This document shows, one piece after another, positions 15,301 through 64,000 of a DNA stretch of 64,000 bases. The DNA comes from Sphingobacteriaceae bacterium (GTDB lineage: Bacteria; Bacteroidota; Bacteroidia; B-17B0; Aurantibacillaceae). Position numbers and translations under genes: made by a program. Each line of letters opens with the position of its first letter. The stretch's first letter is position 1. Under the pieces are notes generated by a model. The model searched no databases. It was not told where the DNA came from and saw nothing but the letters and a program-made list of their open reading frames with translations. The DNA lies in assembly GCA_947453445.1 (NCBI GenBank), contig CANGGP010000006.1:15999-79998 (forward strand), written 5' to 3'.

Positions 15301-15842
15301 AAGATACATACACATTAACCGACGATGTTGGTAATTTAATTGCCGTAAGCTCTTTAACAGCAGCCAACACAGTATTTAATGATTACTACGAATTAATTGG
15401 CTGTTTTAAATTAAAGGTTGAAGATGTTGGCGGCGACGGCGTGCAATGGTGGGCCAATGCTGCACAAGGAACAGGTTATATTCAATTAAAAGACGCAGCA
15501 GGTAACATCGTGAAAACTTTTAATCCTGATTTTGGTAACGGATTTGAATTTAGTTTCACAACCTATGATGCCAGCAATTTGGTGGGCTTACAAGACAATG
15601 GTTTGACTTATGCAGTAAACATTTATCCAAATCCTGCACACGATAAATTTATCCTACAAGGCAATATACCTGATGGCGCTGAAATAAAAATCACCAATAT
15701 GCTGGGTCAAATGTTTGAAGTACCAAGCACCAAAACAGCCATTGGATTTGAATTTGATGCCGGTAAATTAAAACCCGGCGTTTATGTGGTTTCAATTTCA
15801 AAAGACAATCGAACAAGCATTAAAAAAATTGTGATTCAATAA
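12366..15842 (+). CDS. PNGase F-like protein with a large LamG-containing insertion and a T9SS type-A C-terminal sorting domain
   Basis: GCGEWDYSCNTYIV, FVTPYGKG...YYDVSDFAPILKG...DFWFIVGTPP and TITGHGAQGEF...RQGWCPGQ parallel motifs I recall from Elizabethkingia PNGase F. The LamG-like block is MTVSFWAYGN...INELSIWNKELSQSDIQAWM. The C-terminus is YPNPAHDKFILQG...GVYVVSISKDNRTSIKKIVIQ. Confidence 0.75.
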   Translation: MKKLIHYFILLFISGNIFAQQTGDTIVVKGFKYGSNTRDTVINFPSGNTTYEKIILKYNMRCKNNLVSTQAAPNQGCGEWDYSCNTYIVDSSKIENALFTNPNYMVSNFTGSVFPYTSQALYDYYNFSQTSVTLNSVVSENQYTLGNGSNAMSNVIKPNVKSGRTMVLFTAAELSAAGLTAGNINGLMLNVSGSGASVNFLKIGIQQTTLTALNANTVAVSGYSTYYHSNYTFTTGVNRIQFPAPAFVWNGSSNLLLDISYTNTNPNNPLFISGTNTSSVMTLFANNNYALDLSALGHVILNAPSLSNISNEMTVSFWAYGNAALLPNNTSILYGYDSNPNNRNFNLHLPWSNSNMYFDCGFANGGYDRINKAAVPAEISGQWNHWAFTKNAVSGDMKIYLNGFLWHSGTAMTKTISILTMILGKDNALQNNWKGKINELSIWNKELSQSDIQAWMNKQINNTHPFYTNLMAYYKLDEGTGQVVTDSKNNLTSTGVNLQWTYDRGTNLFKSFTESSSRPNVVFLRGTYNLTTATVTVKDSIRRNANVVQQYSITSNAGISPMTDDQVVLVSTQNLYQASPIYTYNGDTGVLTGTTAVNNFSVLNITDLPYYKRYPYFNEIMSFVTPYGKGLSLGANGKSWYYDVSDFAPILKGKKRLLMTLGGENQEQMDLDFWFIVGTPPRTVLQYDQLWQGAARAGGAAIASINNDTRFPVLTQSILPTAQSFKLRSTITGHGAQGEFSQNGGTIYHNFNIAGGAPEFTWQITQKCSDNPMIAQGGTWVYPRQGWCPGQASLLKEFNLTPFISPGNTVTLDYGCSNPPNITGDYRYIVANQFISYGAMNKTLDAAVIDVLQPSDKFLYSKFNPICSNPVIVARNTGSTTLTGMTIDYWINNASAKETYTWTGSLASMDTAIIVLPLGNLWKAPTLSSGNKFNVDIKKANAAVDQYTYNNVYHSAFELPISISNSFTIVFKTNNYPSEDTYTLTDDVGNLIAVSSLTAANTVFNDYYELIGCFKLKVEDVGGDGVQWWANAAQGTGYIQLKDAAGNIVKTFNPDFGNGFEFSFTTYDASNLVGLQDNGLTYAVNIYPNPAHDKFILQGNIPDGAEIKITNMLGQMFEVPSTKTAIGFEFDAGKLKPGVYVVSISKDNRTSIKKIVIQ

Positions 15843-40993: not shown

Positions 40994-43633
40994 ATGAAAA
41001 GAAAATTTTTCGAATTCTTGATCACCGGCAAAAATTTCAGTTTTGCGCTCGTATTTGTTTTAATTTGTGCCTATTCACAAGCACAAACCACTTATACTTT
41101 TAATTACACAGGCAGTCAACAAACTGTTAATTTAACACCCGGCACATACGATATAAAGGCTTGGGGTGGCGATGGTTATACGCAAACAAGTGGATACAAC
41201 GGAAAAGGCGGTTACTCAAATGGCATTTTAACGCTAACTTCTGCACAAACCATTTATGTTTATGTAGGCGGACTTGGTTCATATCCATCAAGTGGTGTTT
41301 CAGGAAATGTGTGGACATTTAATGGTGGTGGCGTTGGATATCCTGCTAGCAATACAGCGTATGGAAACGGAGGCGGCGCCTCTGATGTTAGAACTGTTGG
41401 TGGTTTATGGGATAATAGTTCTAGTTTGGCAAGCAGGGTAATAGTAGCAGGTGGCGGTGGTGCCGGCCGAAATACTTCATACATTGGCGGTAACGGCGGT
41501 GGCCTTGTAGGTGGAACAGGAACTTATTTTAGTCCGGATCAAACCGGAGGACCTACGGGAGGCACCCAAACAGCCGGAGGATTAAACACAGGTTACACTT
41601 CCGGACTTACAACAGCCACTTTAGGTAAAGCAATGACTTGGGATGGTACCACATTAACCGCGAGTTTTCTTGCAGGCGGTGGTGGTGGTTATTATGGCGG
41701 TGCCTCAGGAAGGGTGGCCGGCGGCGGCGGTTCCTCATACATTGGAGGCGTTAGCAGTGGAACCACCATCATGTTTGGTCAAACCGGTTTTGTGACCAAT
41801 CCCGTTGCTTCAAGCGGAAACGGAATGGTCATCATCACTGAGTTGTGTAACATCACCCTCAACAATAACCTTACAGGAAACAACAATGTGGCCATTTGTG
41901 CAGGAACATCTTTATCCTTAACAACCAATGCCATCAGTAATTATTCCTGGAGTAATGGAAGCACTGCGTCTTCAATTGTTGTAACACCAAGTGTAAGTAC
42001 TGTATATACCTTAACAGCTACATCGCCTTCAAACTGTGTAGCAACGCGCATTTTAACAGTAACTGTTAGTTCCGGTAATCCTACCCTTTCAATTAATACC
42101 GGCACCAACGTGATTTGTGCTGGTCAATCACTAATTTTCACTGCATCTGGAGCCAACACTTATACTTGGTCGAACAGCATCGTAAATGGTTCAATTTATA
42201 CACCAAGCGTAACTTCAACCTATACAGTATTAGGGCAAAATGGTTGTGGTATTTCTTCCGCTGTAACCACAATTAGTGTTGCACCATTACCTGTTAGTGT
42301 GATCAGCAACCCTACTGTAGTTTGTGCAGGAAGTACATCCACTTTAACAGCTGCCACTTCAGCCACATCTTTCACTTGGTTCCCGGTTTCGGTGAATGCT
42401 TCATCCATGATGGTTAGTCCCATCAGCAATGCGATTTATACGGTGGTTGCCTCAAATGGCACATGTTTAGGTGCAGCCACAGTGGCGGTAAATGCCAATC
42501 CGATACCAACCATTGTTGCTACACCTTCATTGGCTACAATATGTTCGGGCGATCAAATTGTGTTAAGTGCAACCGGCGCCAATAGTTTTACATGGTCACC
42601 GGGCAATACAAGCGGTAGTTCGGTAACCGTTAGTCCAACCGCACCTACACCCTACCAAGTGGTTGGCACCAATAGCTTTGGCTGTTCAGGTGTAGCGAAT
42701 CTAGCCATTATTGTAATTCCAGGTCCAAGTTTATCAATTGTATCAGATGCCAATTTAATTTGTAAAGGATCGGCCGTTAATTTGAGTGTAACAGGTGCTA
42801 ATTCATATACATGGAGTAGTGGTTCAAACAATTCGACCATTAGTGTGAGTCCAACGGTTACAAGTACCTACAGTGTTATCGGTGATGTAAACGGCTGTTT
42901 GGGTAATACAGTCATCAGTGTGTCTGTATTAAACCCGAGTGTAGCTGTTAGCGGCAATACTTCCATTTGTTCGGGTGAGTCGGCAACACTTATTGCTTCA
43001 GGTGCCACTTCGTACTCTTGGAATACAGGTGCAAGTGGCAATAGTATACTTGTGAATCCTACAAGCAACACCACGTATACTGTTTATGCTTCAACCAATT
43101 CAATTAGTATAAACTGTCCGAGTACAAAATCGGTAACTGTAAATGTTAAACCTTTGCCCACCATCATCGCAAGTATTAACAGTACCAATGTGTGCAAGGG
43201 CGATGCTTGTATTTTAAATGCCTCCGGGGCAGCAAGCTATACATGGAGCACAGGCAATAATACACCTAGCATTACTTTAACGCATACCCTTTTAACCACC
43301 GTAATTTATAGTGTGAGTGGCACAAGCACACTTAATTGCGTGAACAATGCTACACTACAAGTAAAGGTAAATGCTTGCACCGGTATTGATGAATTAAACA
43401 AGGATAAAACATTACTACAGGTTTATCCTAATCCGAACAACGGTAGTTTCTTAATTGCGTCGAAATACAACGGTGAAATATTTATATTAAATCAACTTGG
43501 TCAGCTTGTTAAACAATTAAAAATCAATGAAGGCGAACAAGTAAACGTTAGTGATTTGGCGCCGGGCGTTTATTACATCAATGTTTCAAGTAGAATAGAA
43601 CAATCTAGTTTAAAAATTATTGTGACCAAATAA
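40994..43633 (+). CDS. T9SS type-A cargo: glycine-rich domain plus 7 Cys-pair Ig-like repeats plus C-terminal sorting domain (paralogue 2)
   Basis: Same architecture. YTFNYTGSQQTVNLTPGTYDIKAWGGDG...RVIVAGGGGAG...GNGMVIITE. Repeat 4 is nearly identical to paralogue 1. The C-terminus is VYPNPNNGSFLI...GVYYINV...KIIVTK. Confidence 0.85.
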   Translation: MKRKFFEFLITGKNFSFALVFVLICAYSQAQTTYTFNYTGSQQTVNLTPGTYDIKAWGGDGYTQTSGYNGKGGYSNGILTLTSAQTIYVYVGGLGSYPSSGVSGNVWTFNGGGVGYPASNTAYGNGGGASDVRTVGGLWDNSSSLASRVIVAGGGGAGRNTSYIGGNGGGLVGGTGTYFSPDQTGGPTGGTQTAGGLNTGYTSGLTTATLGKAMTWDGTTLTASFLAGGGGGYYGGASGRVAGGGGSSYIGGVSSGTTIMFGQTGFVTNPVASSGNGMVIITELCNITLNNNLTGNNNVAICAGTSLSLTTNAISNYSWSNGSTASSIVVTPSVSTVYTLTATSPSNCVATRILTVTVSSGNPTLSINTGTNVICAGQSLIFTASGANTYTWSNSIVNGSIYTPSVTSTYTVLGQNGCGISSAVTTISVAPLPVSVISNPTVVCAGSTSTLTAATSATSFTWFPVSVNASSMMVSPISNAIYTVVASNGTCLGAATVAVNANPIPTIVATPSLATICSGDQIVLSATGANSFTWSPGNTSGSSVTVSPTAPTPYQVVGTNSFGCSGVANLAIIVIPGPSLSIVSDANLICKGSAVNLSVTGANSYTWSSGSNNSTISVSPTVTSTYSVIGDVNGCLGNTVISVSVLNPSVAVSGNTSICSGESATLIASGATSYSWNTGASGNSILVNPTSNTTYTVYASTNSISINCPSTKSVTVNVKPLPTIIASINSTNVCKGDACILNASGAASYTWSTGNNTPSITLTHTLLTTVIYSVSGTSTLNCVNNATLQVKVNACTGIDELNKDKTLLQVYPNPNNGSFLIASKYNGEIFILNQLGQLVKQLKINEGEQVNVSDLAPGVYYINVSSRIEQSSLKIIVTK

Positions 43634-51188: not shown

Positions 51189-51354
51189 TGAGATATTCAT
51201 GCTGCGTAATAAATTTATTTTATTATCAAAAAACTGTTTTAGCTGTTGTCAAATCTTGATCAATACTAAGCACTGAAAAAAAATAATTCATTAAATTTTT
51301 AATCAGAAATTTGTTTTTTTGTAACTTCACTTGATTAATCAAATAATTAAAACT

Positions 51355-54105
51355 ATGAAACAAAAATATCTAACTAAAATAATCCTCAATCAATTTGGGT
51401 TATTGGGTTTTGTGCTGTTTGCCACTGTAATTATACCCAACTCATCAATGGGCCAATTATCGTATACTTTTACGCCTTGTGGTGCAACTGGCGCTAATGG
51501 TCCTACTCAAACACAAGCAAATAGCACTTATTCAACTGGCAACAGCTTAAATGGTTCGGTTACTATCACAGGAAACGGCATACAGCAGTTTACAGTGCCT
51601 ACAACCGGCATTTGGAAAATTGATGCCCGTGGAGCATCCGGTTATCCTTTCGGATCAGGTGGTAGAGGCGCAAGAATTTACGGTGAAGTTAGTTTAAATG
51701 CAGGTGACGTTTTAAAAATTGTTGTTGGACAATTGGGTAATTTCTGTAACAGTAGTGGTAATTTACAATATGGCGGAGGCGGTGGTTCATTTGTGGCACG
51801 ACTTAATAATACGCCGCTTGTTATTGCAGGTGGTGGTGGTGGCTCGCATGCAGGATCGTACGCAGCAAGTTCTGCGGATGGAACAGTTGTGACCACTGGT
51901 AATACCGGTGCAGGTTCAACCGCCGGTGCAGGCGGTAGTGGTGGGTCTGGCGGCGCAGCTTCATCTTCAGCCAACGGTGGCGCTGGATTTTATGGTGATG
52001 GTGGCGGTACAACAGGACCTGCTTTATCGTTTACAAACGGCGCCCAAGGTGGTAATGTTGGTTGCGGAGCATACACTTATGGCGGCGTTGGCGGTTTTGG
52101 CGGCGGCGGCGGCACGCAAAGTTATAATAACAACCGCGGCGGCGGCGGCGGCGGCTATAGTGGCGGCGGCGGCGGTCAACTTGGCCAGCCTACTTGTTGG
52201 GGCGGCGGCGGCGGCTCATTTAATTCAGGCGCAAACCAAATCAATCAATCTGGCGCTAACACCTTCAGTGATGGTATCGTTATTATTACCGAAGCTTGTA
52301 ATATGAATTTAAGTGCTTCAACGAATACCAACGTGAACAATACAAGCACTACCATTTGTTCGGGTCAAACCTTAACATTAACCACTAATGGCGTTAGCAG
52401 TTATTCGTGGAGCACAGGCGCTACAACCTCCTCTATTGTTGTTACGCCAACTGCCAGCATATTATATACCTTGTCAGCCACCTCTCCTTTTAGTTGCACA
52501 GCATCCAGAAGTTTAAGTGTGACAGTGAACAGTGGTTTACCGGTTCTTTCAGTGGCAACAACACCAACCAATAATATTTGTCTTGGTAAAACAGTAACGC
52601 TTACAGCCAGCGGTGCCAACTCCTATTCATGGACAGGCGGCGTAAGCAACGGAACAAGTTTTGCACCAAGCACCACATCTAATTACATTGTAACAGGTCA
52701 AAATGCATGTGGTACTGCTACTGCTCAAGCGGGTGTAACTGTTGCACCATTGGTAGTAACAGCTATTACAAGCAACTCTAGTGTTTGCGCAGGCCAATCA
52801 ACTTCTTTAATTGCTACTTCAGCGGTTAATGGATATACATGGACGCCCTTTAATTTTATTGGATCTACTGTTTTGGTTAATCCGGTTGTAAATACCATTT
52901 ATACTGTCACTGCCTCTGATGGAACCTGCGCTGGAACAGCAACTGTTAGTGTGTCGGCATTACCAATCCCTACCATCACAAGTGTATCAAGTTCAACAAA
53001 CTTTTGTGAAGGCAGTTCTGCGACCTTAACAGCCGGAGGAGCGATTGCGTATACTTGGCAGCCAGGCAATGTAACCGGTAATACTATTGTTGTAACGCCT
53101 GTTGTACCTACACTCTACACCGTTACAGGTATTGGCAGTAACAGTTGCTTTGCCAGCGCAAATCAAATTGTGATCGTTAATCCATCTCCTACTTTAAATA
53201 TTAGTTCAAGTAATCCACTCATTTGTTTAGGAGGAAATGCCACCATAAATATTAACGGAGCTTCAACTTACACATGGAACAGCGGGGCCAATTCAAGCAG
53301 CTTGGTGGTAAGTCCAATTCAAAACACAACCTATACAGTGGTTGGTGAAGATGCAACAACCAATTGCAAAAGCACCAGCACCATTGCTGTATCGGTTTTC
53401 AGTCCATCCTTAAGCATTACCGGAAACACGGCCATTTGTATCGGCGCATCGGCTACTTTGCAAGCAAGTGGCGGCAACACTTATAATTGGAGCAATGGCG
53501 GACCAAGTGCAATTAATATTGTTAATCCAAGCAGTACAACCATTTATTCTGTGAGCGCACTTACTAATTCAGGAAGTATCAATTGTTCAAGCAGTGCTAG
53601 CATCCAAGTAGTAGTGAAACCAAATCCAAGTATTACTGTTGTGCCAAGCAGAAGTGTAATTTGTAAAGGTGAAACTGCAAATGTTTCAGCTACAGGCGCA
53701 CAAACCTACACTTGGAGCACAGGTGATATCACTGCTTCGGTGAATGTAACTTCAAGTTTAGTCACCACTATTAATTATACAGTAACAGGCACCAGCAGTT
53801 TAGGTTGTGTTGGCAGCAATTCAACCTCAGTAAAAATTAATTCATGCATTGGTTTGGAAACGTATACCGGATTAGACCAAAGTTTCATCCTTTTTCCAAA
53901 TCCCAATCAGGGTCATTTTGTGATTGAATGCGCTACAGATATACAAGTATCAGTTTACAATCAAATTGGAGAACTAATTGTGACAAAACAATTAAGTGGG
54001 GCTAAACAATACGATATGGATTTAAGCCAGTTGAATGCAGGCGTTTATTTTATTTCTGCCTTTGACGGAAACAATCGCATCTACAAAAAGATGATTGTAG
54101 AATAA
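51355..54105 (+). CDS. T9SS type-A cargo: ALK/LTK-like glycine-rich domain plus 7 Cys-pair Ig-like repeats plus C-terminal sorting domain (paralogue 3; track ORF starts at TTG 51331)
   Basis: FTPCGATGANGPTQTQANSTY...IQQFTVPTTGIWKIDARGASG...LKIVVGQLG...GGGGGSFVA...PLVIAGGGGGS...GGGGGGYSGGGGG...DGIVIITE, then seven Ig-like units. The C-terminus is LFPNPNQGHFVIE...GVYFISAFDGNNRIYKKMIVE. Confidence 0.85.
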   Translation: MKQKYLTKIILNQFGLLGFVLFATVIIPNSSMGQLSYTFTPCGATGANGPTQTQANSTYSTGNSLNGSVTITGNGIQQFTVPTTGIWKIDARGASGYPFGSGGRGARIYGEVSLNAGDVLKIVVGQLGNFCNSSGNLQYGGGGGSFVARLNNTPLVIAGGGGGSHAGSYAASSADGTVVTTGNTGAGSTAGAGGSGGSGGAASSSANGGAGFYGDGGGTTGPALSFTNGAQGGNVGCGAYTYGGVGGFGGGGGTQSYNNNRGGGGGGYSGGGGGQLGQPTCWGGGGGSFNSGANQINQSGANTFSDGIVIITEACNMNLSASTNTNVNNTSTTICSGQTLTLTTNGVSSYSWSTGATTSSIVVTPTASILYTLSATSPFSCTASRSLSVTVNSGLPVLSVATTPTNNICLGKTVTLTASGANSYSWTGGVSNGTSFAPSTTSNYIVTGQNACGTATAQAGVTVAPLVVTAITSNSSVCAGQSTSLIATSAVNGYTWTPFNFIGSTVLVNPVVNTIYTVTASDGTCAGTATVSVSALPIPTITSVSSSTNFCEGSSATLTAGGAIAYTWQPGNVTGNTIVVTPVVPTLYTVTGIGSNSCFASANQIVIVNPSPTLNISSSNPLICLGGNATININGASTYTWNSGANSSSLVVSPIQNTTYTVVGEDATTNCKSTSTIAVSVFSPSLSITGNTAICIGASATLQASGGNTYNWSNGGPSAINIVNPSSTTIYSVSALTNSGSINCSSSASIQVVVKPNPSITVVPSRSVICKGETANVSATGAQTYTWSTGDITASVNVTSSLVTTINYTVTGTSSLGCVGSNSTSVKINSCIGLETYTGLDQSFILFPNPNQGHFVIECATDIQVSVYNQIGELIVTKQLSGAKQYDMDLSQLNAGVYFISAFDGNNRIYKKMIVE

Positions 54106-54155: not shown

Positions 54156-55311
54156 AATTTAATTTCTGTATCGCTAAGAGAATGTTTTTTTCTTGATCAT
54201 TGAAATGCAATCCTCGTCGCTCGAAAACCTTTGTATTGGTTTCGAATAATTTTTCATTTTGATAACGCTCAAAGCCCTCGCTCCCACCCCAACTAAATGA
54301 AGGAATGTATGTTGGCGGAAAACCACCGCCAAAGATATTACAACCTACACCTACAACAGTTCCGGTATTAAACATTGTATTTATACCTGATTTGGAATAA
54401 TCGCCCATAATTAATCCGCAAAATTGCAAACCTGTATCAATGGCTTTTTTTAAGGGATAATTGTACAGTTTTACATTTGCGTAATTGTTTTTTAAATTGC
54501 TGTTATTGGTATCGGCACCTAAATTGCACCATTCACCGATCACAGAATTTCCCAAAAAGCCATCATGTGCCTTGTTGCTGTACCCAAAAATAACGCTGTT
54601 ATTTACCTCGCCCCCTACTTTGCTATGCGGACCTATGGTTGTTGCCCCATAAATTTTTGCCGACATTTTTAATGCACTGTGCTCACATAAAGCGAAAGGA
54701 CCTCTAACCACCGAGCCTTCCATGATTTCGCTATCTTCTCCCAAATAAATAGGTCCGCTTTGTGTGTTTAAAACACAAGCAGTTGCTTTGGCGCCTTTTT
54801 CAAGAAAAACCAAATTGCGGTCACCTATTACGGTCACAGAAGCATCAAGTTTTTCGGATTGGCGTTGATTGGTGATTAAATGAAAATCTGCTTTTAGGGC
54901 AATGTCATTTTTTGTAAAAATATCACTTGGCGTTGAAATGCTTAATACTTCGGCATCAAGTTCTTTTTTACTGAGGGATTCGTATGACTGAAGTATTTCA
55001 TTGTGTTTATAGGCAATCAACAATTGTCCACTGTACAAAGCTTCGTTGTTTTGCAAGCCTTGAATGGCAGCAAGTAATTTAGCATCAGGACAAACAGAGG
55101 CATTGATGAATAAGTTGTTTTGACTTAAATTCAATTTGTATTTTTCGCTCAGATATTCTTTACAATGATAAGAAATCGACAATCCAAGGGCTTTTTCCCA
55201 TTTTTGGGCAATCGTTAAAATACCAATTCTAATTTCAGAGATGGGTCTAGTGAAAGTTAAGGGCAAAAGATTATTCCAGGTTTGTTCGTTGTCAAACAAA
55301 ACTACATTCAT
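54154..55311 (-). CDS. GlmU-like putative sugar nucleotidyltransferase/acyltransferase (left-handed beta-helix)
   Basis: MNVVLFDNEQTWNNLLPLTFTRPISEIRIGILTI plus C-terminal hexapeptide-type repeats (IGPHSKVGGEVNNSVIFGYSNKAHDGFLGNSVIGEWCNLGADTNNSN). It overlaps the upstream gene by 4 nt. Confidence 0.7.
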   Translation of the reverse strand: MNVVLFDNEQTWNNLLPLTFTRPISEIRIGILTIAQKWEKALGLSISYHCKEYLSEKYKLNLSQNNLFINASVCPDAKLLAAIQGLQNNEALYSGQLLIAYKHNEILQSYESLSKKELDAEVLSISTPSDIFTKNDIALKADFHLITNQRQSEKLDASVTVIGDRNLVFLEKGAKATACVLNTQSGPIYLGEDSEIMEGSVVRGPFALCEHSALKMSAKIYGATTIGPHSKVGGEVNNSVIFGYSNKAHDGFLGNSVIGEWCNLGADTNNSNLKNNYANVKLYNYPLKKAIDTGLQFCGLIMGDYSKSGINTMFNTGTVVGVGCNIFGGGFPPTYIPSFSWGGSEGFERYQNEKLFETNTKVFERRGLHFNDQEKNILLAIQKLN

Positions 55312-58300
55312 TTTTTCAATCTTTTTTTGGCTTTAATAATTTTGAATTCAGTACGACGATTTACTGCATGTTCAGCATCGGTACATGGTACATTATTAAA
55401 ACACTTATTAATAATTTTTGTTTCGCCGTAACCAATCGGTTTTAAGCGATCTTTGCTAATGCCTTTGGCTACAAGGTAGTCGACCGCGGCTTGTGCTCTT
55501 TTACGAGAAAGATTTAAATTAAAACCGTAACTCGATTGGGCATCGGTGTGTGAGCTAATTTCCAAATCCAGTTTAGGATTTCCGTTTAATACTTCGAAAG
55601 CTTTATCCAATACTTTTTTGGCTTCATCTGTTACTTCAAATTTACCATAGCCGTAATAAATATTCTCAACAATGGTAATGCTAATTTCCATGTCGATGGC
55701 AGCCTCTTCGTCTTTTTCACGCTGTAGGCGCTCTTCTTCATCTTTACGGGCTTGTTCTTTTTGCGCCAACAATTCAGCTTCTTTTATGCGTTTGGCTTCT
55801 TTAGCGGCTTCTTCCTTAATACGTTTTGCTTCAAGCGCAGCTTCTTCCTTATTTTTCTTTTCAAGGCCGGCTAATTCTTTAGCGGTTTTCTCGGCCAATT
55901 CACGTTCTTGTTTGGCGACTAGGTCGGCAGCTTTTTTCGCAGCCAATTCTCTTTCGGCTTTGGCGCGCATTTCGCGTTTTTTGGCTTCCGTCATTTTTAA
56001 CCAAGGATCATCAACTGAAAATTCGCCCATGGCATTTTTATCGGCCTCTAAAATTTTAAAGGTGAACATACCCGATTCAAGTTCTATCACGCGGTAAACC
56101 TTTCCTTTGCTATCTGCCAAGCGAATTGATTTTACACCAACCATACCCGGGTCGTTTGGATCTGATTCAAAAAGATAATTCTTTTCGGCACTTAAATTTT
56201 TGAAACTAAACTTACCATAAGGAGAAGTAACGATTTTACGGGGATTCGTTCCGTCTTCGTCTTTCACTGTTAGATGTGCATTGGCAATTGGTTTATTGTT
56301 TTGATCATATAGATAACCATAAATTCCCATCACCATGTTTGCATCGCCTGCATCCATATCGGCCATCAAGTTCTTGTCGGAGCTTAAGATTTTAAAATCG
56401 AAATTCTCTTCTTTATCTTTTACGATCGATTTAACCTCTTTACCTGATTTATTGGTGATGGTAATGCGAGTACCCGGCGGCAATTGCACATCACCTTCAT
56501 CGATTGATACAATGAAATTTTGATCGCCCGGAATATTTCTAAATGCAAAAGCACCGAATTCGTTGGTGGTTGTTTCACCAATTACTTCACCGGCTTGATT
56601 CAAGATTTTCACTTTAACGTTTTTCATGGCTTTAGAAGCCTTGTCGCCCGACATTAAAGTACCTGCAAATGAAATATCTTCATCGGCTGCCATATCGTTG
56701 ATGACGCTTTTTTCGGAAGATAAAATTTTGAAAGCAAAATCTTCTTTTGTTTTCACATAAGATTTCATCTCCTTACCAGCTCTGTTTGTGAGGGTAATTT
56801 TTGTACCATCCGGAAGATGTAAATCTTCATCATCCACGGTTACAATATAATTTTGATCACCCGGAATATTTTTAAAAGTAAAGTTTCCGTTTTCATCGGT
56901 TTCGGTTTCACCCAATACTTCACCCGATTGGTTCACAATTTTTACCTTCACTTTTTTCATGGCCACATTGGCCTGATCACCTGAAAATAATTTTCCGGCA
57001 AATGAAACATCTTGCGCTTCGGTATCAGACATTGGCACCACTTCTCCACTCACATTTTTAAATCCAAATTTTCCGTTCGGCAATTTGGTGGCAACACCGG
57101 TAATAACCGTATCTTTTTGGGCAAGGTAATATTTCTTTCTGCCGATCATTTGGGCATCTACCTCATCAACCACTGCCATGTATTTTTTCTCACTCGATAA
57201 ATTTTTGAAAACAAATTGCCCTTTATTATCTGTTACGGTGCTATCAATTTTTCTACCGTTTTCATCGTATAACACAACCTTCTTTTCGGCGGCAACGTCT
57301 TTTACATTTTTACTAAGTAATACTGTTCCTCCTAATTGGAATGACTTATCCTTAAATCTGAAAAAATAAATATCATCTTTTCCTTTACCACCGGTGCGGT
57401 TAGATGAGAAATAACCGCTTGAATCGGTTAAAAAAGTAACGCCAAAATCATCGGTACTGCTGTTCAGTTGAATGCCTTCGTTACGATTCAAAATCCATTT
57501 GTTGTCAATTCTGTTTGCAGAGTATATATCTAATCCACCAAAACCAGGCAGACCATTTGAAGAGAAAAACAATTTACCATCTTTACGAATGGTTGGAAAC
57601 ATTTCATCGCCGCTGGTATTAATATCGGGACCAAGATTCACGGGCGTTCCCCAATTGATTGAATCATTTTTAACGCACATCCAAATATCTTTGCCGCCAA
57701 AACCACCGGGCATATCGCTTGTAAAGAAAAGTGTTTTATTATCGGCGCTAATGCTAGGATGCGCAATTGAATAATCATCGCTTGAAAAAGGCAATACTTT
57801 AATGTCTTTCCATGAGCGGTTTGATCCTTTTGCGGTATAAATTTTTGAGCGATTTACAAAGCCTTTCTTTTGTATGTTTAACACCCTTGTGAAATAAAGT
57901 GTTTTACCATCAACGCTTAAACAAGCTGGACCATCGTGGTATTCGGAGCTTAGTTTTTTAGAAAGTGTTTTTGATTTTTTTAATTTCTCGCCTTCAATTT
58001 CAGAAACAAACATTTGAATATAAGGCAAACCATCGCTGCTATTTACTTCATAGTTTACAAAATCGAAGCTTTCGTGTTCGGCCACAAACATTAGTTTGTT
58101 ATTGGCTACATAAGGCGAAAACTCAGCTTTTTCGGTGTTTATTCCGTCGATGTTTTGCACACTGTATTCAACCGGCTTGGCAAGGTAATAATTGATTTCT
58201 GCACAAAACTTGAGTGCTTTTTTCGCATACTCATCATTTGGGGCCTTTTGCAAATACAGATTATAGTATTTTGCGGCCTCTTCGTATTTGGTATTTGATT

Positions 58301-58607
58301 TTAATACTTGTGCAAATTTATAATACACATCATTTTCGAGTGGTGCTGCATCTGTTATTTCAACTGCTTGGCGATAACAAGCCTCGGCATTGGCGTAATC
58401 ATTTAATTTAAGGTAAATGCTACCAAGTTTTAGGTTGGCGGCTTGACGCTCGGTTGCTATTTTTGATTTCTGTGCTTTTTTATAAAACGGAATTGCCTCG
58501 GCATATTGTTCGTTGGCAAAAAGCAAATCACCTTTGGTTAATTGGGCATTACCAATTAAAGAACATACTACGAGAAAGGCAATGGTATAAAGTTTTGATA
58601 ATCTCAT
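55308..58607 (-). CDS. large OmpA-family protein: TPR, TolB-like beta-propeller, carboxypeptidase-regulatory-like repeats, Lys/Glu coiled coil and OmpA C-terminal domain
   Basis: TPR-like N-terminus (YAEAIPFYKKAQ, YANAEACYRQAV). PD40-like blades (DGKTLYFT, NKTLFFTSDMPGGFGGKDIW, GKLFFSSNGLPGFGGLDIY). Repeats of the ENGNFTFKNIPGDQNYIV type. The C-terminus is EISSHTDAQSSYGFNLNLSRKRAQAAVDYLVAKG...NRRTEF. Confidence 0.85.
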   Translation of the reverse strand: MRLSKLYTIAFLVVCSLIGNAQLTKGDLLFANEQYAEAIPFYKKAQKSKIATERQAANLKLGSIYLKLNDYANAEACYRQAVEITDAAPLENDVYYKFAQVLKSNTKYEEAAKYYNLYLQKAPNDEYAKKALKFCAEINYYLAKPVEYSVQNIDGINTEKAEFSPYVANNKLMFVAEHESFDFVNYEVNSSDGLPYIQMFVSEIEGEKLKKSKTLSKKLSSEYHDGPACLSVDGKTLYFTRVLNIQKKGFVNRSKIYTAKGSNRSWKDIKVLPFSSDDYSIAHPSISADNKTLFFTSDMPGGFGGKDIWMCVKNDSINWGTPVNLGPDINTSGDEMFPTIRKDGKLFFSSNGLPGFGGLDIYSANRIDNKWILNRNEGIQLNSSTDDFGVTFLTDSSGYFSSNRTGGKGKDDIYFFRFKDKSFQLGGTVLLSKNVKDVAAEKKVVLYDENGRKIDSTVTDNKGQFVFKNLSSEKKYMAVVDEVDAQMIGRKKYYLAQKDTVITGVATKLPNGKFGFKNVSGEVVPMSDTEAQDVSFAGKLFSGDQANVAMKKVKVKIVNQSGEVLGETETDENGNFTFKNIPGDQNYIVTVDDEDLHLPDGTKITLTNRAGKEMKSYVKTKEDFAFKILSSEKSVINDMAADEDISFAGTLMSGDKASKAMKNVKVKILNQAGEVIGETTTNEFGAFAFRNIPGDQNFIVSIDEGDVQLPPGTRITITNKSGKEVKSIVKDKEENFDFKILSSDKNLMADMDAGDANMVMGIYGYLYDQNNKPIANAHLTVKDEDGTNPRKIVTSPYGKFSFKNLSAEKNYLFESDPNDPGMVGVKSIRLADSKGKVYRVIELESGMFTFKILEADKNAMGEFSVDDPWLKMTEAKKREMRAKAERELAAKKAADLVAKQERELAEKTAKELAGLEKKNKEEAALEAKRIKEEAAKEAKRIKEAELLAQKEQARKDEEERLQREKDEEAAIDMEISITIVENIYYGYGKFEVTDEAKKVLDKAFEVLNGNPKLDLEISSHTDAQSSYGFNLNLSRKRAQAAVDYLVAKGISKDRLKPIGYGETKIINKCFNNVPCTDAEHAVNRRTEFKIIKAKKRLKK
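56345..57012 (-). repeat. in-frame tandem duplication of a unit of about 111 aa inside the OmpA-family gene
   Basis: DVSFAGKLFSGDQANVAMKKVKVKIVNQSGEVLGETETDENGNFTFKNIPGDQNYIVTVDDEDLHLPDGTKITLTNRAGKEMKSYV aligns with DISFAGTLMSGDKASKAMKNVKVKILNQAGEVIGETTTNEFGAFAFRNIPGDQNFIVSIDEGDVQLPPGTRITITNKSGKEVKSIV. Coordinates are approximate. Confidence 0.8.
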
Positions 58608-58614
58608 ATAATTC

Positions 58615-59541
58615 TTACAAGAAACGTGGATTGATTAAACGTGATGTTTTCTTGGCTGCCAGGTCATATCCCAACATTAATTCATGACTGCCTCCAAGTC
58701 GACGTGAATCAGAAATTCCTGAATCGTAAGAATAGGCAATTCTAAAATGATCTGACATGTAGTATTGAAACAACATACCCGGACCATAGCCTGCGCGATA
58801 AAATGCGCCAAGCCAAAGTTTTTTATGCAAGAAAAAATTAAGATTTAAGTCTAATCCGAAATTATTACCTACTTGTTTCATTAAAATGGTTGGGGCGAAC
58901 ACGGTGTTTTTATCGATAATAAAAGAATAACCGGCGGTTAAAAATAAATGTGTTTTTAAGCGGTATTTAAAATCGTTTCCGCCGGCAACAACAGGGGCGT
59001 ATGTGTAAACATTCGGATTGTTAAGATGGGTGGCGCTTAATCCAACAAAATATTTGGTTGAGCGCAAATACATACCGGCATTAATATCCAAAGCGCTTGG
59101 CGTTTGATTTTGCATTAACTGAGAAGGCACTTCACCTTCTTTGAAATTAATTTTACTGAAATTAAATTGGTAGCGGTTATAACCGGCATTTAAACCAAAG
59201 CCCAATTTGGTTTTGCGGTCAATTTTTAAAATATAAGCGGCATTGCCATAGGCTGCAATAACGTTGCGCGGCCCCATGATATCATTCACAACTGTTAAAC
59301 CAACACCAACATTTTTTTTCACAATTGGTGAGTGCACACTAAAGCAAGTTGTTTGAGGGGCTCCATCGAATCCCACCCATTGTTTTCTGGTTGAAACAGT
59401 TGCCGCCAAACCATCGCGGGCACCGGCATAACCTGGATTAATGACCATTTGGTTGAACTGATAAAGGTTGTACTGAGCATCTTGTTGCGCCTTGCCGGCC
59501 AAGAAACCCATTAAACTTAAAAGTGTAAATAATTTTTTCAT
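58615..59541 (-). CDS. PorP/SprF family type IX secretion system membrane protein
   Basis: Signal peptide, then the QQDAQYNLYQFNQMVINPGYAGA family signature. It ends 7 nt before the OmpA-family gene. Confidence 0.88.
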   Translation of the reverse strand: MKKLFTLLSLMGFLAGKAQQDAQYNLYQFNQMVINPGYAGARDGLAATVSTRKQWVGFDGAPQTTCFSVHSPIVKKNVGVGLTVVNDIMGPRNVIAAYGNAAYILKIDRKTKLGFGLNAGYNRYQFNFSKINFKEGEVPSQLMQNQTPSALDINAGMYLRSTKYFVGLSATHLNNPNVYTYAPVVAGGNDFKYRLKTHLFLTAGYSFIIDKNTVFAPTILMKQVGNNFGLDLNLNFFLHKKLWLGAFYRAGYGPGMLFQYYMSDHFRIAYSYDSGISDSRRLGGSHELMLGYDLAAKKTSRLINPRFL

Positions 59542-60614: not shown

Positions 60615-63600
60615 TTATTTTATTTGTAGCCAATTGGTTCCATCAGAAATAATTTCGATTCCGAGATTATTACCAAGACCAACAGCGGCAGTTCCAGTTA
60701 AATCAATGTAGGATGAAACTGTTCGAGCACTTCCTGAACGATTAACTATGACATACCTTCTATTTGGACAAGTGCTTGCGGCAGGCAATGTAATTGAGCT
60801 AACGGCAGTAATAACATAATATACTGAGCCGGTTCCGTCAAGGGTTAGCACTCCCGTTCCGCTGGATTTAATTATGGTTGAAGCAAACGAACCTTTTATA
60901 TCCATGGTGCTTAAGGCTGTAGTTGTACCTATGCCTAAATTTCCTGTAGAAAAATCACCATAAATAAGTGGTGTTACACTGGTTGCGGAATTGGCGATGT
61001 ATAATTTATTTGAATTGGTTTCGTAATAACCAGCTTGCGAGCCAATGAATACGTTATTACTGCTATTGCCTGATTGGTAGCCGGCAAAATTTCCCATTAT
61101 TACGTTTGCGCTTCCTGTATTTCCATAACCCGCAGAAGTACCCACATAAACGTTACCGGCCCCTGTTGCTTGATCACCTGCTGAGAATCCGAAGGCTACG
61201 TTATTGTTACTTGTGGAATTTGTTCTTAGCGCGTACATACCATAAGCTGAGTTAAAACTTCCGGTGGTATTGTTATGCAATGAATAATAGCCTGAAGCCA
61301 CATTATAACTACCGGTGCTATTGGCATACAGTGCCAAGCTACCAAGGGCTGAGTTTTGTGAACCTGATGTATTAAATATTAATGCTTGGTTACCTATTGC
61401 TGTGTTATCAGAACCATTGCTGTTTGAATTTAAAGCACTTGACCCGAAGGCATTATTATTGCTTCCTGTGCTATTGTTTCCCAATGCAAAATAACCAAAT
61501 GCGCCATTTGATGAACCCGAATTACCCGAATACATTGCGAAGTTACCTACGGCGGTATTAAATGAACCGCTACCACTATTATTCAAAACATTGTAACCCA
61601 CGCCCACATTGCTACTGCCTGTAATATTTGAAAGTAAGGCATTCATGCCAATTGCTGTATTAAATGATCCGACAGTATTTAATTTCAAAGACTGACTACC
61701 AAATCCTGAATTTCCAATTCCATTGGTGTTTGCACTTAATGACATAAAACCAAATGCAGAATTGTTGCTAGAACTTGTATTGCTGTACAATGCGCCACTA
61801 CCCGATGCTGTGTTGAACGAACCTGTAGTGTTTGACAAGAGGGCTTGATTACCAAATGCTGCATTTTCTTGTCCGAAAGTATTTGAACCTAAACTTAAGT
61901 AACCTAAAGCTGTATTGAACAAAGTATTATCGATGGTACCGGACTTTTGATTGTTCACTCTAAAATTAAGTGCATGGTTATCGCTTGTACCAATAAAATT
62001 AAGCGAGGGTGTTGTACTGGCATTTCCGGTTAAACCCCATCCGCCACCTCCACCTGAAGGGGTTTGCCAGGTGGCATTACCACTGGCATCGGATGTGAGA
62101 ACCTTTCCGCTTGCTTGGTTACCATCTTCAAAACGCATGGTACCTGACACGTGCAAATTGGCCGATGGCACAGTTGCACTCGCTGTACCTACGGCTATGC
62201 TTCCTCCAACATAAGTATTATATGGGGTGTAAATACCCCACACATTGAAGTTAGCATCTTTAAACGCCAAAGCGGCCCAGTAATTACCATTGTATTGTGC
62301 TCCTAATACCCCGGCGGAGTTTGAATAATCGTTAAAATTATGACCAGCCATGCCTGCGGTGAAAACATCTCCCCAGTAACTTGCACCTTGAACTGCAGCA
62401 TCCACTTGATTATAGGCCCAACCTGTTCCTCCATTCACACTAAAGGTTGAACCTGTGCGCCAACCGGCAATTGTTGCTTTACCCGGACCATAATCATTTA
62501 CGGCAGAAGCATCGCGGTAAACATATAAATTATAATTACTTCCGGTATTTTGACTATTAATACCTACTCTACCATTGCCTCGAACGCGCATTAACTCATT
62601 GCTTGTACTTGATGAAGTACCTGCGTAAAACACATGGTCGGCGCCGGTGTAATCAACATGATATTGAAACTCAGTTGAAGAAGAACCTAATCCGTAGAAT
62701 TGATGATCATCATTTGAGGCTTCAAATAAAACAAGTTTTCTATTCGCAAAGGTATTGTCAAATTGTAAAGGTGCATTTGCGTTGGTGGTGCCAATTCCAA
62801 CAAAATTACTATTAAAATCACCGTAAATTAAAGTGTTGGTGCTACTATTTGCTATATGTAAAACCCCTGAATTTGTTTCATTTGAGCCGGCATCATAACC
62901 GATAAAAACATTGTTGCTTCCTGTTGCACTTGAACCTGCATTATAACCCAAAGCTGTGTTTTTTTCACCGGTATAATTATTACTTAAAGCATTTACTCCA
63001 ACTGCGGAATTAAAACTTCCAACTGTGTTATACATTGCATTGTTACCCAAGGCCAAGTTATAACTGCCTGTTGTATTTGAACGCAATGAATAACCACCAA
63101 GCGATGTATTGTTCGCACCAGTAAAATTAAAGTGTTGTGATTCTGAACCTATAGCAGAGTTGTAACTACCGGTTGTTAAATTCATCAAAGTCCAATCACC
63201 TAAGGCGGTGTTCTCATTTCCTGTGTCTATACTTTTTAGAGCGTATTCACCGTAAGCACTATTCCATGTAGAAGTTGTTGTTTCATTACCTGCGGAATTT
63301 CCAAAATAAATTGAACTGTTGGCAGAGTTGATTCTACCTGCCAAACCGTTATTCACGCGAAACATTAAATCATTATTATCTGTTGTACCAAGGAAATTTA
63401 ATGATGGGGTGGTTCCGGCATTACCTGTTAAAGACCAAACATTGGTACCTGTTGCCACAGTTGTCCATATTGGTGCAGTATTGGCGCCTTGTGAAATGAG
63501 GAACTCACCTGCGCTGCCTGAAAGTCCACCGGGCATGAGGGCGTCAGAAAATTTCAAATTACCATTTACATCCAATGCTTCTGTAGCACTGGCAGTGTTA

Positions 63601-64000
63601 ATCCCTAGTAGTCCATTTGCAAAATCACCTTTCATTAAAGGTGTTGTAGAATTAGAAGAATTCGCAATCCACAAATTATCGCTGCCTGTTTCGAAATAAC
63701 CTGCATCTCTACCTAAAAATACATTACCAGTGCCGGTTGTTACAGTACGACCAGCGCGATAACCAAGGGCAACGTTATAACTACCGGTAGTTACAGAGGC
63801 CATTGCTTGTGAACCCAAAGCGGTGTTTAATGCACCACTTGTGTTAGAGAATAAAGCTGACTGACCAACAGCCGTATTTTCAAAACCGGTTGTATTGGCT
63901 TTTAGTGCTGAAAAACCACTTGCTTCATTAAAACTTCCAGTTGAGTTTGAATACATAGCCTGCGAACCACTGGCATTATTAAACGAACCGGTGCTGTTAG
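60615..64000 (-). CDS. giant repeat-rich fibre/adhesin-like protein with no recognisable T9SS sorting domain; N-terminus lies beyond the window end
   Basis: The reading frame stays open upstream of the track Met (NSTGSFNNASGSQA-MYSNSTGSF). It has long runs of 17-residue repeats (NxAxGxxALxxNTxGxx) interrupted by conserved connector motifs, and a non-repetitive C-terminal domain of about 90 aa. Confidence 0.85.
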   Translation of the reverse strand, partial: NSTGSFNNASGSQAMYSNSTGSFNEASGFSALKANTTGFENTAVGQSALFSNTSGALNTALGSQAMASVTTGSYNVALGYRAGRTVTTGTGNVFLGRDAGYFETGSDNLWIANSSNSTTPLMKGDFANGLLGINTASATEALDVNGNLKFSDALMPGGLSGSAGEFLISQGANTAPIWTTVATGTNVWSLTGNAGTTPSLNFLGTTDNNDLMFRVNNGLAGRINSANSSIYFGNSAGNETTTSTWNSAYGEYALKSIDTGNENTALGDWTLMNLTTGSYNSAIGSESQHFNFTGANNTSLGGYSLRSNTTGSYNLALGNNAMYNTVGSFNSAVGVNALSNNYTGEKNTALGYNAGSSATGSNNVFIGYDAGSNETNSGVLHIANSSTNTLIYGDFNSNFVGIGTTNANAPLQFDNTFANRKLVLFEASNDDHQFYGLGSSSTEFQYHVDYTGADHVFYAGTSSSTSNELMRVRGNGRVGINSQNTGSNYNLYVYRDASAVNDYGPGKATIAGWRTGSTFSVNGGTGWAYNQVDAAVQGASYWGDVFTAGMAGHNFNDYSNSAGVLGAQYNGNYWAALAFKDANFNVWGIYTPYNTYVGGSIAVGTASATVPSANLHVSGTMRFEDGNQASGKVLTSDASGNATWQTPSGGGGGWGLTGNASTTPSLNFIGTSDNHALNFRVNNQKSGTIDNTLFNTALGYLSLGSNTFGQENAAFGNQALLSNTTGSFNTASGSGALYSNTSSSNNSAFGFMSLSANTNGIGNSGFGSQSLKLNTVGSFNTAIGMNALLSNITGSSNVGVGYNVLNNSGSGSFNTAVGNFAMYSGNSGSSNGAFGYFALGNNSTGSNNNAFGSSALNSNSNGSDNTAIGNQALIFNTSGSQNSALGSLALYANSTGSYNVASGYYSLHNNTTGSFNSAYGMYALRTNSTSNNNVAFGFSAGDQATGAGNVYVGTSAGYGNTGSANVIMGNFAGYQSGNSSNNVFIGSQAGYYETNSNKLYIANSATSVTPLIYGDFSTGNLGIGTTTALSTMDIKGSFASTIIKSSGTGVLTLDGTGSVYYVITAVSSITLPAASTCPNRRYVIVNRSGSARTVSSYIDLTGTAAVGLGNNLGIEIISDGTNWLQIK
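60999..61916 (-). repeat. 18 consecutive 51-nt (17-residue) coding repeats
   Basis: Counted by hand from NTALGYLSLGSNTFGQE to FIGSQAGYYETNSNKLY: 18 x 17 aa = 306 aa = 918 nt, exactly matching the coordinates. Confidence 0.85.

Follow-up and report, generated by a model that had tools for sequence, protein, structure and literature searches.

Does the glycine-rich N-terminal head of a predicted surface protein from a Sphingobacteriaceae bacterium truly belong with the ligand-binding domain of ALK and LTK, two receptor tyrosine kinases of animals, and, if so, what might such a module be doing on a bacterium? The gene in question lies on the + strand of contig CANGGP010000006.1 (positions 15,999 to 79,998, a stretch of 64,000 nucleotides that we call the window), where its open reading frame (ORF) starts at 51331 (TTG) or 51355 (ATG) and ends at 54105; the public gene call for an identical protein takes the ATG start and gives 916 residues. 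That identical protein is on contig CANFUA010000011.1 of the metagenome-assembled genome GCA_947450055.1, the exact sequence is present on 15 contigs, and the nearest named relative among the matches listed is a partial hypothetical protein (94% identity) from a "Bacteroidota bacterium". An earlier reading of the window, made from the DNA letters only (the sequence-only reading), had seen here a protein secreted by the type IX secretion system (T9SS) whose N-terminal part is an ALK/LTK-type glycine-rich domain (GRD). This core claim is backed by sequence comparison, by profile search and by the predicted fold, and the protein, which we call the target, is almost certainly an ALK-type GRD on a T9SS cargo protein. 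Its layout is as follows.

51355-51453, + strand: predicted Sec signal peptide (residues 1-33, MKQKYLTKIILNQFGLLGFVLFATVIIPNSSMG), assigned by inspection, with likely cleavage before Gln34
51454-51828, + strand: head, N-terminal part of the predicted TNF-like subdomain (head residues 1-125), with the YTFTPCGATGANGPTQ strand and helix, IQQFTVP and VLKIVVGQLG
51829-52230, + strand: head, glycine-rich subdomain (head residues 126-259, 43% Gly), in which conserved Gly motifs alternate with variable linkers
52231-52302, + strand: head, C-terminal strands of the predicted TNF-like subdomain, which close the head (head residues 260-283, ...SDGIVIITEACN)
52303-53874, + strand: stalk of seven immunoglobulin (Ig)-like repeats of ~72 residues (residues ~317-840), with two Cys each and the motif C.G..(L/V).A.G...Y.W
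53890-54099, + strand: T9SS type-A C-terminal sorting domain (residues 846-915; PF18962 Por_Secre_tail and TIGR04183)

The signal peptide was read from the sequence by eye, as a basic n-region followed by a hydrophobic h-region, and Gln stands at the predicted +1 position both here and in two paralogs encoded further upstream in the window, which is consistent with the Q-rule of the Bacteroidetes. The whole head comprises 283 residues (residues 34-316, nucleotides 51454-52302), five of them Cys, and it is 29% Gly as against 8% in the remaining protein; the GxVxITE motif at its end is kept across the family and in both paralogs. The repeat motif of the stalk starts at residues 335, 409, 478, 551, 624, 695 and 770, and Pfam recognizes there Ig_7 (3.1e-6) and, under its cutoff, PKD_5 (1.7e-3). 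The sorting domain is scored by PF18962 at 3.4e-12 (46.9 bits, cutoff 27) and by TIGR04183 at 2.2e-9 (37.2 bits, cutoff 23). Every motif that the sequence-only reading had quoted is present in the order it gave, in a segment that it had placed at 51451-52300, and the seven repeats and the sorting domain that it described are there as well.

Homology of the head to ALK and LTK

When the full 283-residue head was compared by phmmer with the PDB sequence set (177,635 sequences), it matched ALK and LTK only, at E values of about 5e-10; the bias score was 54. To take out the effect of glycine, the glycine-poor first 97 residues were used as a query on their own (bias 0.8), and these returned ALK at 4.8e-10, LTK at 7.5e-8 and C. 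elegans SCD-2 at 2.6e-3, the next match having E >2. A profile built from 56 family members reached ALK at 2.9e-50, LTK at 3.7e-41 and SCD-2 at 4.5e-24, with nothing else credible in the PDB. The ordered motifs (CGAxGxxGPTQ...Y, IQxWxVP..Y.I.A.GA.GG, VLxIxVGQxG, GGGGGS(F/Y)V, PLxxAGGGGG, GGFGGGGG, GGGGGYxGG and a final beta-strand) are all found in the target, whose motif string aligns both with ALK and with the family consensus. Identity to ALK is about 28% over the whole domain in the Foldseek alignment and 39% over the N-terminal 97 columns when human ALK is taken. The notion that all this is low-complexity glycine bias with no real domain behind it, which the sequence-only reading had itself raised and for which one could cite the glycine content of the head, the bias score of the full-length match and the silence of hmmscan with the Pfam profile PF12810 (see below), deserves practically no credence, being already refuted by the recovery of the same matches from the glycine-poor query, by the strength of the family profile and by a confident model whose fold matches are exclusive to ALK/LTK.

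The AlphaFold2 model of the head, built on the alignment of those 56 family members and a prediction rather than an experimental structure, has a mean pLDDT (predicted local distance difference test score) of 92.6 and a pTM (predicted template-modeling score) of 0.93. It has strands at head residues 3-6, 36-39, 43-47, 52-59, 72-81, 86-90, 112-116, 121-125, 260-269 and 275-280, and a single short helix at head residues 19-26. Over head residues 126-259 the DSSP assignment is nearly blank, with isolated strand marks of one or two residues, and the pLDDT is mostly >90. Foldseek against the PDB, which amounts to the structural check that the sequence-only reading had proposed, came out in its favor: the model matched the GRDs of ALK, LTK and SCD-2 only (E down to 1.4e-13, TM (template-modeling) score 0.72-0.76, root-mean-square deviation 3.8-5 Å), and the next matches were TNF-family ligands such as GITRL, at a non-significant E >1. 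In the predicted fold, the N- and C-terminal strands form a TNF-like beta-sandwich, and the glycine-rich subdomain is an insertion between them. Because that subdomain makes up about half of the head and the TM score is about 0.75, the glycine-rich part must superpose on ALK/LTK too; from this whole-domain superposition, together with the high pLDDT in a region devoid of DSSP structure, head residues 126-259 presumably form a lattice of the polyglycine-II type.

The head is, we conclude, a true homolog of the module, TNF-like plus glycine-rich ("TG" or GRD), that ALK and LTK carry and no artifact of composition, and it falls in the ALK-like subclass that retains the N-terminal CGAxGxxGPTQ strand and helix. 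The GRDs of ALK, LTK and SCD-2 (7LRZ, 7N00, 7NWZ, 7NX1, 7LIR) have the same order of motifs as the target, CGAxGxxGPTQ included, and are extracellular, as the target would be. The rest of the architecture is different. Kinase, transmembrane helix and EGF-like, MAM and LDLa domains are all absent from the target; where the ALK opening has its second Cys (QAQC), the target has Ala; and the head would stand at the far end of an Ig-like stalk, in a protein with a T9SS signal, whereas the ALK GRD adjoins an EGF-like domain near the membrane (PMC10605310). According to the titles of the PDB entries the ALK/LTK domain binds ALKAL/AUG; the ligand of the target is almost certainly not ALKAL.

Two head subtypes and the PF12810 profile

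The target is one of three paralogous lollipop proteins encoded within 16 kb of the window, and the other two stand in tandem, 58 nt apart.

38179-40935, + strand: paralog 1 (918 residues), head at nucleotides 38269-39141, of the PF12810-core type, without the N-terminal helix insert and without Cys
40994-43633, + strand: paralog 2 (879 residues), in tandem with paralog 1, head at nucleotides 41084-41851, of the PF12810-core type (PF12810 5.6e-34)

Paralog 1 matches PF12810 at 1.3e-28 over residues 43-299 and Por_Secre_tail at 6.5e-13. Seven Ig-like repeats of ~72 residues, with two Cys in each, are found in all three window proteins, and the stalks of the three are 45-60% identical (48% for stalk and C-terminal domain (CTD) of paralog 1 against the target). 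The heads of the paralogs are ~35 residues shorter than that of the target, since they are without the strand-helix-strand that bears CGAxGxxGPTQ, and they have no Cys as against five in the target. BLASTP of the target head against the paralog-2 head gave nothing significant except for the C-terminal strand, and phmmer with the paralog-2 head found no matches among the PDB sequences; hhalign of this head with the target family gave a probability of 96%, over a 50-column beta-core only. A hidden Markov model of the N-terminal region scores the target at 2.7e-32 and ALK at 2.9e-28, but paralog 2 at only 4.4e-7. PHROG 7388 is common to the target and both paralogs, their best PHROGs being different, and a member of the paralog-2 cluster is named "glycine-rich protein" by NCBI. 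The AlphaFold2 model of the paralog-2 head, made with a mixed multiple sequence alignment, is poor (pLDDT 59.6); its Foldseek matches to ALK/LTK (E 5e-6, TM score ~0.4) are weak and possibly biased by that alignment, and may count as minor support. The target and its paralogs fall within one superfamily but in separate subfamilies, and their heads are of two GRD subtypes.

A match to the Pfam profile PF12810 (ALK_LTK_GRD) was to have been the decisive check of the sequence-only reading, and here the result went the other way: neither the whole target protein nor its isolated head gives a match in hmmscan, even at E<=10. The gathering score of the profile is 24.5 bits, and the scores obtained are these.

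phiCDHM19 gp32 (C. difficile phage): 180 bits, 1.1e-52
Window paralogs: 101 bits (paralog 1) and 119 bits (paralog 2)
Human ALK GRD: 51 bits, 2.6e-13
Nearest relatives of the target, P0002 and P0003: 39 and 34 bits
Target: no match

At E<=1e-3 the profile is passed by 29 of the 56 members of the target family and misses the other 27. The model starts at the IQxWxVP motif, leaving out the CGAxGxxGPTQ helix. Since human ALK itself reaches only 51 bits, and a phage protein 180, the profile is evidently centered on the phage and bacterial core type, and the missing match is therefore a limit of the model and not a sign of non-homology; a PF12810 match is a working criterion tied to one model and does not define homology. 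The Pfam model that is named for ALK/LTK thus misses ALK-like bacterial members and rates ALK itself weakly. The same scores bear on what had been said of the two paralogs: they do lack the CGAxGxxGPTQ opening, as reported, but the description of their heads as a "more diverged" version sits badly with PF12810, which recognizes both of them strongly and the target not at all.

Spread of the family and the likely role of the head

The family to which the head belongs is anything but rare. A word-based search yielded at least 816 homologs among 8,000 scored candidates, and a profile search of 1.84 billion cluster representatives found at least 15,885 at E<=1e-3, with 9,514 at <=1e-10 and 4,726 at <=1e-30. 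Among the GTDB species representatives at least 57 loci carry family members; the bacterial loci listed are from Bacteroidota, Marinimicrobia, Myxococcota, Alpha- and Gammaproteobacteria, Verrucomicrobiota, Planctomycetota, Zixibacteria and Gracilibacteria, and the archaeal ones from Nanohalarchaeota, Woesearchaeota and Methanosarcinales (L028, L030, L033, L038, L047). Eukaryotic matches are few among those listed, namely cnidarian non-kinase proteins and one EukProt entry. The public names of the members are "hypothetical protein" or "glycine-rich protein". Cultured relatives with a homolog include Fibrella forsythiae and Chitinophaga (L044, L053). An opening of the form "CGxxGxxGP ... IQxWTVP" is frequent in the bacterial and archaeal members, so that the CGAxGxxGP opening, which had been taken as a metazoan-type mark, is not special to metazoa. 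Some archaeal members bear the CGxxGxxGP opening, and the nanohalarchaeotal protein in L047 has a hydrophobic C-terminal segment that is possibly membrane-anchoring.

Within its proteins the GRD takes a terminal position: it follows the signal peptide in the T9SS proteins of Bacteroidota and lies at the extreme C-terminus in many proteins of Myxococcota and Proteobacteria. Its fusion partners are the T9SS CTD, PEP-CTERM, IPTL-CTERM and the N-termini of type IV and Flp pilins; it is also found with PKD, cadherin-like or EGF modules, and in short Bacteroidota members there is a signal peptide, the GRD and the CTD and nothing more. Unlike the single-head T9SS proteins, some giant members (P0121, P0251 and others) have many tandem ALK-type GRDs, for example 8 stretches in 3,708 residues and 10 in 7,819 residues. 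T9SS type-A cargo proteins of Bacteroidota with Ig_7 "CHU_C-associated" repeats share with the target the repeats, the sorting domain and, going by the prediction for the target, the signal peptide; the target differs from them in that its head is a GRD, and not an enzyme or a known adhesin domain.

Members of the family are also found in phages. In BFVD, 44 viral models match the fold at E<=1e-3, and some of them are named as virion structural or tail fiber proteins. Many of these matches bear the propagated name "receptor protein-tyrosine kinase". The target head itself matches a giant coding sequence of Actinomycetia phage DSL-LC01 (L059, 6527-14377) that is called "ALK tyrosine kinase receptor" and lies beside collagen-like fiber genes; there is no kinase domain in the first 2,617 residues of its product. 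Such kinase-receptor names on phage fiber proteins look like a misleading name that has been propagated, evidently by way of the glycine-rich domain. Another match of the target head is a protein of Synechococcus phage S-SZBM1 whose neighbors are YadA-domain and structural proteins. Heads of the paralog type match a "glycine rich family protein" in 30 C. difficile phage records (41-46% identity over ~120 residues; for the paralog-2 head, residues 1-121). In phiCDHM19 the gene for this protein (L061, 5998-7686) comes directly after the baseplate, tail and tail-fiber genes and before the lysis cassette.

Two phage proteins with such domains have been studied, one by structure and one by binding experiments. 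The tail fiber gp24 of cyanophage Pam3, solved by Wei et al. in 2022 (PDB 7YPX), has a helical shaft and a distal tip, in which a TNF-like domain is joined by a second one of 39% glycine with 12 glycine-rich motifs in a four-layer lattice (PMC9608196). The TNF-like plus Gly-rich unit superposes on the C. elegans ALK ectodomain 7LIR with an RMSD of 2.6 Å over 125 C-alpha atoms, and the authors propose that a conserved glycine stem, together with a distal tip that is hypervariable, recognizes the host (PMC9608196). Much as is predicted for the target head, gp24 combines a TNF-like domain with a glycine lattice outside the metazoa, far out on an elongated surface structure and with its Gly motifs kept; unlike the target, it is a trimer, held together by a helical bundle at the N-terminus, and depends on the chaperone gp25 (PMC9608196). 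The occurrence of ALK-like modules outside animals in a recognition setting is thus already published, although the link between the target and gp24 is indirect, coming from the paper (PMC9608196).

The second case is PtsHN10M, a PtsM-type protein studied by Phetruen et al., which has the Pfam glycine-rich domain at residues 14-267 and has been established by experiment as a receptor-binding protein that binds SlpA (PMC9615553). It is ~54% identical to a phiCDMH1 protein (PMC9615553), which is among the matches to the paralog head. The PtsM-type proteins (PtsHN10M, phiCDMH1 gp30, phiCDHM19 gp32) resemble the window paralogs in having an N-terminal PF12810 domain. They are unlike the target in matching the paralog-type head and not that of the target, for which only 3 other phage records were found, in possessing a variable C-terminal binding domain and in having neither an Ig-like stalk nor a T9SS signal. 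A PtsM-type protein is one with a PF12810 N-domain and a variable C-domain encoded in a tail-fiber module, and the window proteins, which lie among housekeeping genes, are not of this kind. A third comparison is with the gp38 adhesin of Salmonella phage S16 (6F45), a polyglycine-II sandwich in which a rigid lattice displays variable loops at the tip of a fiber (PMC9608196, PMC13243192). It differs from the target head in having no TNF-like subdomain, it appeared in none of the PDB sequence-profile or Foldseek searches, and it is probably a functional analogy rather than a homolog. Since the family is so large, has been catalogued before and abounds in bacteria, archaea and phages, and since phage members have been solved or tested (PMC9608196, PMC9615553), the novelty that the sequence-only reading had seen in this domain was overestimated; the target is a further member.

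What, then, might the head do on the bacterium? We infer that the protein would be secreted, being carried by Sec across the inner membrane and by the T9SS across the outer one, and that after removal of the sorting domain it would either be released or stay on the surface, attached through its C-terminal end. This would make the N-terminal head the most distal part, held out on a seven-repeat stalk of perhaps 25 nm, an estimate from typical Ig-domain lengths. In such a lollipop-like protein the head could act as a recognition or adhesion module, its rigid lattice of conserved glycines on a TNF-like beta-sandwich presenting variable linker loops to a ligand, which might be a protein or glycan on another cell, a particle or a substrate. 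In the glycine-rich part of the family the column entropy is 1.12 for Gly as against 2.60 for non-Gly positions, with the variation residing in the linkers; conserved Gly and variable linkers are the pattern described for Pam3 gp24 (PMC9608196). The three paralogs would carry differing heads on similar stalks and so have differing specificities, a diversification that fits with stalks that are 45-60% identical and heads that are of different subtypes. Apart from Gly, the near-invariant positions of the family hold for the most part hydrophobic or aromatic residues (F, P, Y, I, A, L, V), to which two Gln and two Ser are added. There is no Asp, Glu, His or Cys among them, and an enzymatic role was rejected for this reason.

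Cautiously, we take the most likely role of the protein to be that of a head for recognition or adhesion, carried on an Ig-like stalk. We favor it because the ALK/LTK module binds ligands, because the module forms the fiber tip in Pam3, because the GRD occupies the ends of its proteins and is joined to display signals, and because the protein has no other candidate functional domain. The virion structural and tail fiber names among the viral fold matches, the fiber or baseplate surroundings of phage homologs and the variable linkers between conserved glycines speak for it as well. Several points weigh against this view. PF12810 does not recognize the target; no cellular prokaryotic member has a known ligand; and the neighborhood of the gene is of the housekeeping sort (MMPL transporter, nucleotidyl transferase), with no conserved partner or functional clue. 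The receptor role of the Pam3 gp24 tip is a proposal from structure (PMC9608196), and 7YPX was not retrieved by Foldseek against the PDB with either the target or the paralog-2 model, nor by the family profile against the PDB sequences. Finally, a PtsHN10M fragment comprising residues 1-269 bound neither C. difficile cells nor PtsL, whereas residues 259-570, the variable C-terminal half, sufficed for binding to cells; the authors caution that the folding of the truncated proteins was unchecked (PMC9615553). This result counts at least for the paralog-type domain, PtsHN10M being of that type and not of the target's. No functional study of cellular bacterial members was found in the literature that could be searched.

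The PtsHN10M experiments also speak for the main alternative, one that seems unlikely but deserves a serious hearing, namely that the head is a structural or assembly module, perhaps a very stable, protease-resistant cap or an oligomerization or scaffold domain, with specificity residing elsewhere or nowhere. In that phage protein the glycine-rich domain is the conserved part and it is the variable C-terminus that binds cells, the isolated domain binding neither cells nor PtsL (PMC9615553). Moreover, the strongest conservation in the family is in the glycines and the core hydrophobics, and some proteins have 8-10 tandem copies, as structural repeats do. On the other hand, the same module is the ligand-binding site in the PDB complexes of ALK/LTK and forms the distal fiber tip in Pam3 gp24 (PMC9608196). 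In the window proteins, furthermore, nothing lies distal to the head, the remainder being repeats and a sorting signal, and the short Bacteroidota proteins have only a signal peptide, GRD and CTD.

Surface adhesins with distal ice-binding domains exist, and one might imagine that the stalk shows outward a flat glycine lattice that binds ice or some other crystalline or flat surface. Bundles of polyglycine or polyproline II (PPII) helices do form the ice-binding scaffold of snow-flea antifreeze proteins, and the literature on PPII bundles places these in one group with ALK (PMC11364801, PMC13243192). We nevertheless consider this improbable: the family is present in C. difficile phages, in Bacillus thuringiensis and in many phyla, including those of warm or host-associated habitats, and its variable positions have no regular Thr/Ala ice-binding pattern. 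In ALK, moreover, the lattice packs against the TNF-like sandwich and offers no free flat face.

Neighborhood and ancestry of the module

The remaining features near the target are the following.

51678-51974, - strand: short overlapping ORF inside the head region, with a Pro/Ala-rich translation
51908-52306, + strand: short overlapping ORF inside the head region, with a Pro/Ala-rich translation
55308-58607, - strand: PorE-like/CHU_0125 OmpA-family protein (NF052230 T9SS_PorE 5.3e-113, below the curated cutoff)
58615-59541, - strand: PorP/SprF (TIGR03519 9.1e-74, 248 bits, cutoff 90.6; PF11751 4.4e-66)
60615-63956, - strand: ORF of 1113 residues directly upstream of the PorP/SprF and PorE-like genes, no Pfam or NCBIfam match

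The Pro/Ala-rich translations of the two short ORFs over the head suggest that these are shadows of the runs of GGN codons. The PorP/SprF and PorE-like genes, which are 1.2-5.4 kb downstream of the target, indicate from their sequences that the genome has a T9SS. Genes of the PorP/SprF type are often found beside large T9SS cargo genes, and since the 1113-residue ORF adjoins PorP/SprF it may be such a cargo. A second T9SS type-A cargo protein, of 1158 residues, is encoded elsewhere in the window (12366-15842, + strand) and contains a Laminin_G_3/ConA-like lectin domain, a PNGase F C-terminal-like domain and Por_Secre_tail.

As regards ancestry, the opening motifs of the target are strikingly like those of human ALK, and this might suggest that the gene was recently acquired from an animal and mimics ALK/LTK in order to capture host cytokines of the ALKAL type. 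Such a history is highly improbable, since the family numbers at least 15,885 cluster representatives, with members in many bacterial phyla, in archaea and in phages, and since its eukaryotic distribution is patchy where the prokaryotic one is broad. In addition, human ALK shares only 39% identity with the target over the 97 best-aligned columns, while several other bacterial sequences reach 48-51% and the cnidarian GRD proteins 41-43%. The cnidarian non-kinase GRD proteins (P0028, P0078, P0087, P0093) are named as loricrin-like, keratin-like or LTK-like, and some have EGF domains. A neighbor-joining tree of the 97 N-terminal columns, a short alignment with biased sampling, united ALK with the cnidarian sequences as a metazoan clade in 24 of 500 bootstraps and recovered a cnidarian trio in 382 of 500.

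The breadth of the family in prokaryotes and phages and its patchiness in eukaryotes make the opposite direction of transfer plausible. Tentatively, for we would not yet call it probable, the ALK/LTK module may have arisen outside animals, which would have acquired it on one or more occasions from a very large pool of surface-recognition heads in prokaryotes and phages, in which the CGAxGxxGPTQ subclass, as found on the target, would be its closest prokaryotic relative; the cnidarian non-kinase GRD proteins could then be separate acquisitions.

The target reveals no new kind of system. It does provide, however, a clean and well-supported case in which a free-living bacterium has the ligand-binding module of ALK/LTK, with an arrangement of head, stalk and T9SS anchor that suggests surface recognition. 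Given the distribution of the family, it is a testable hypothesis that the ALK ectodomain module originated in prokaryotes or phages and, if this is true, the bacterial members would be tractable models for the recognition of ligands by a polyglycine lattice.

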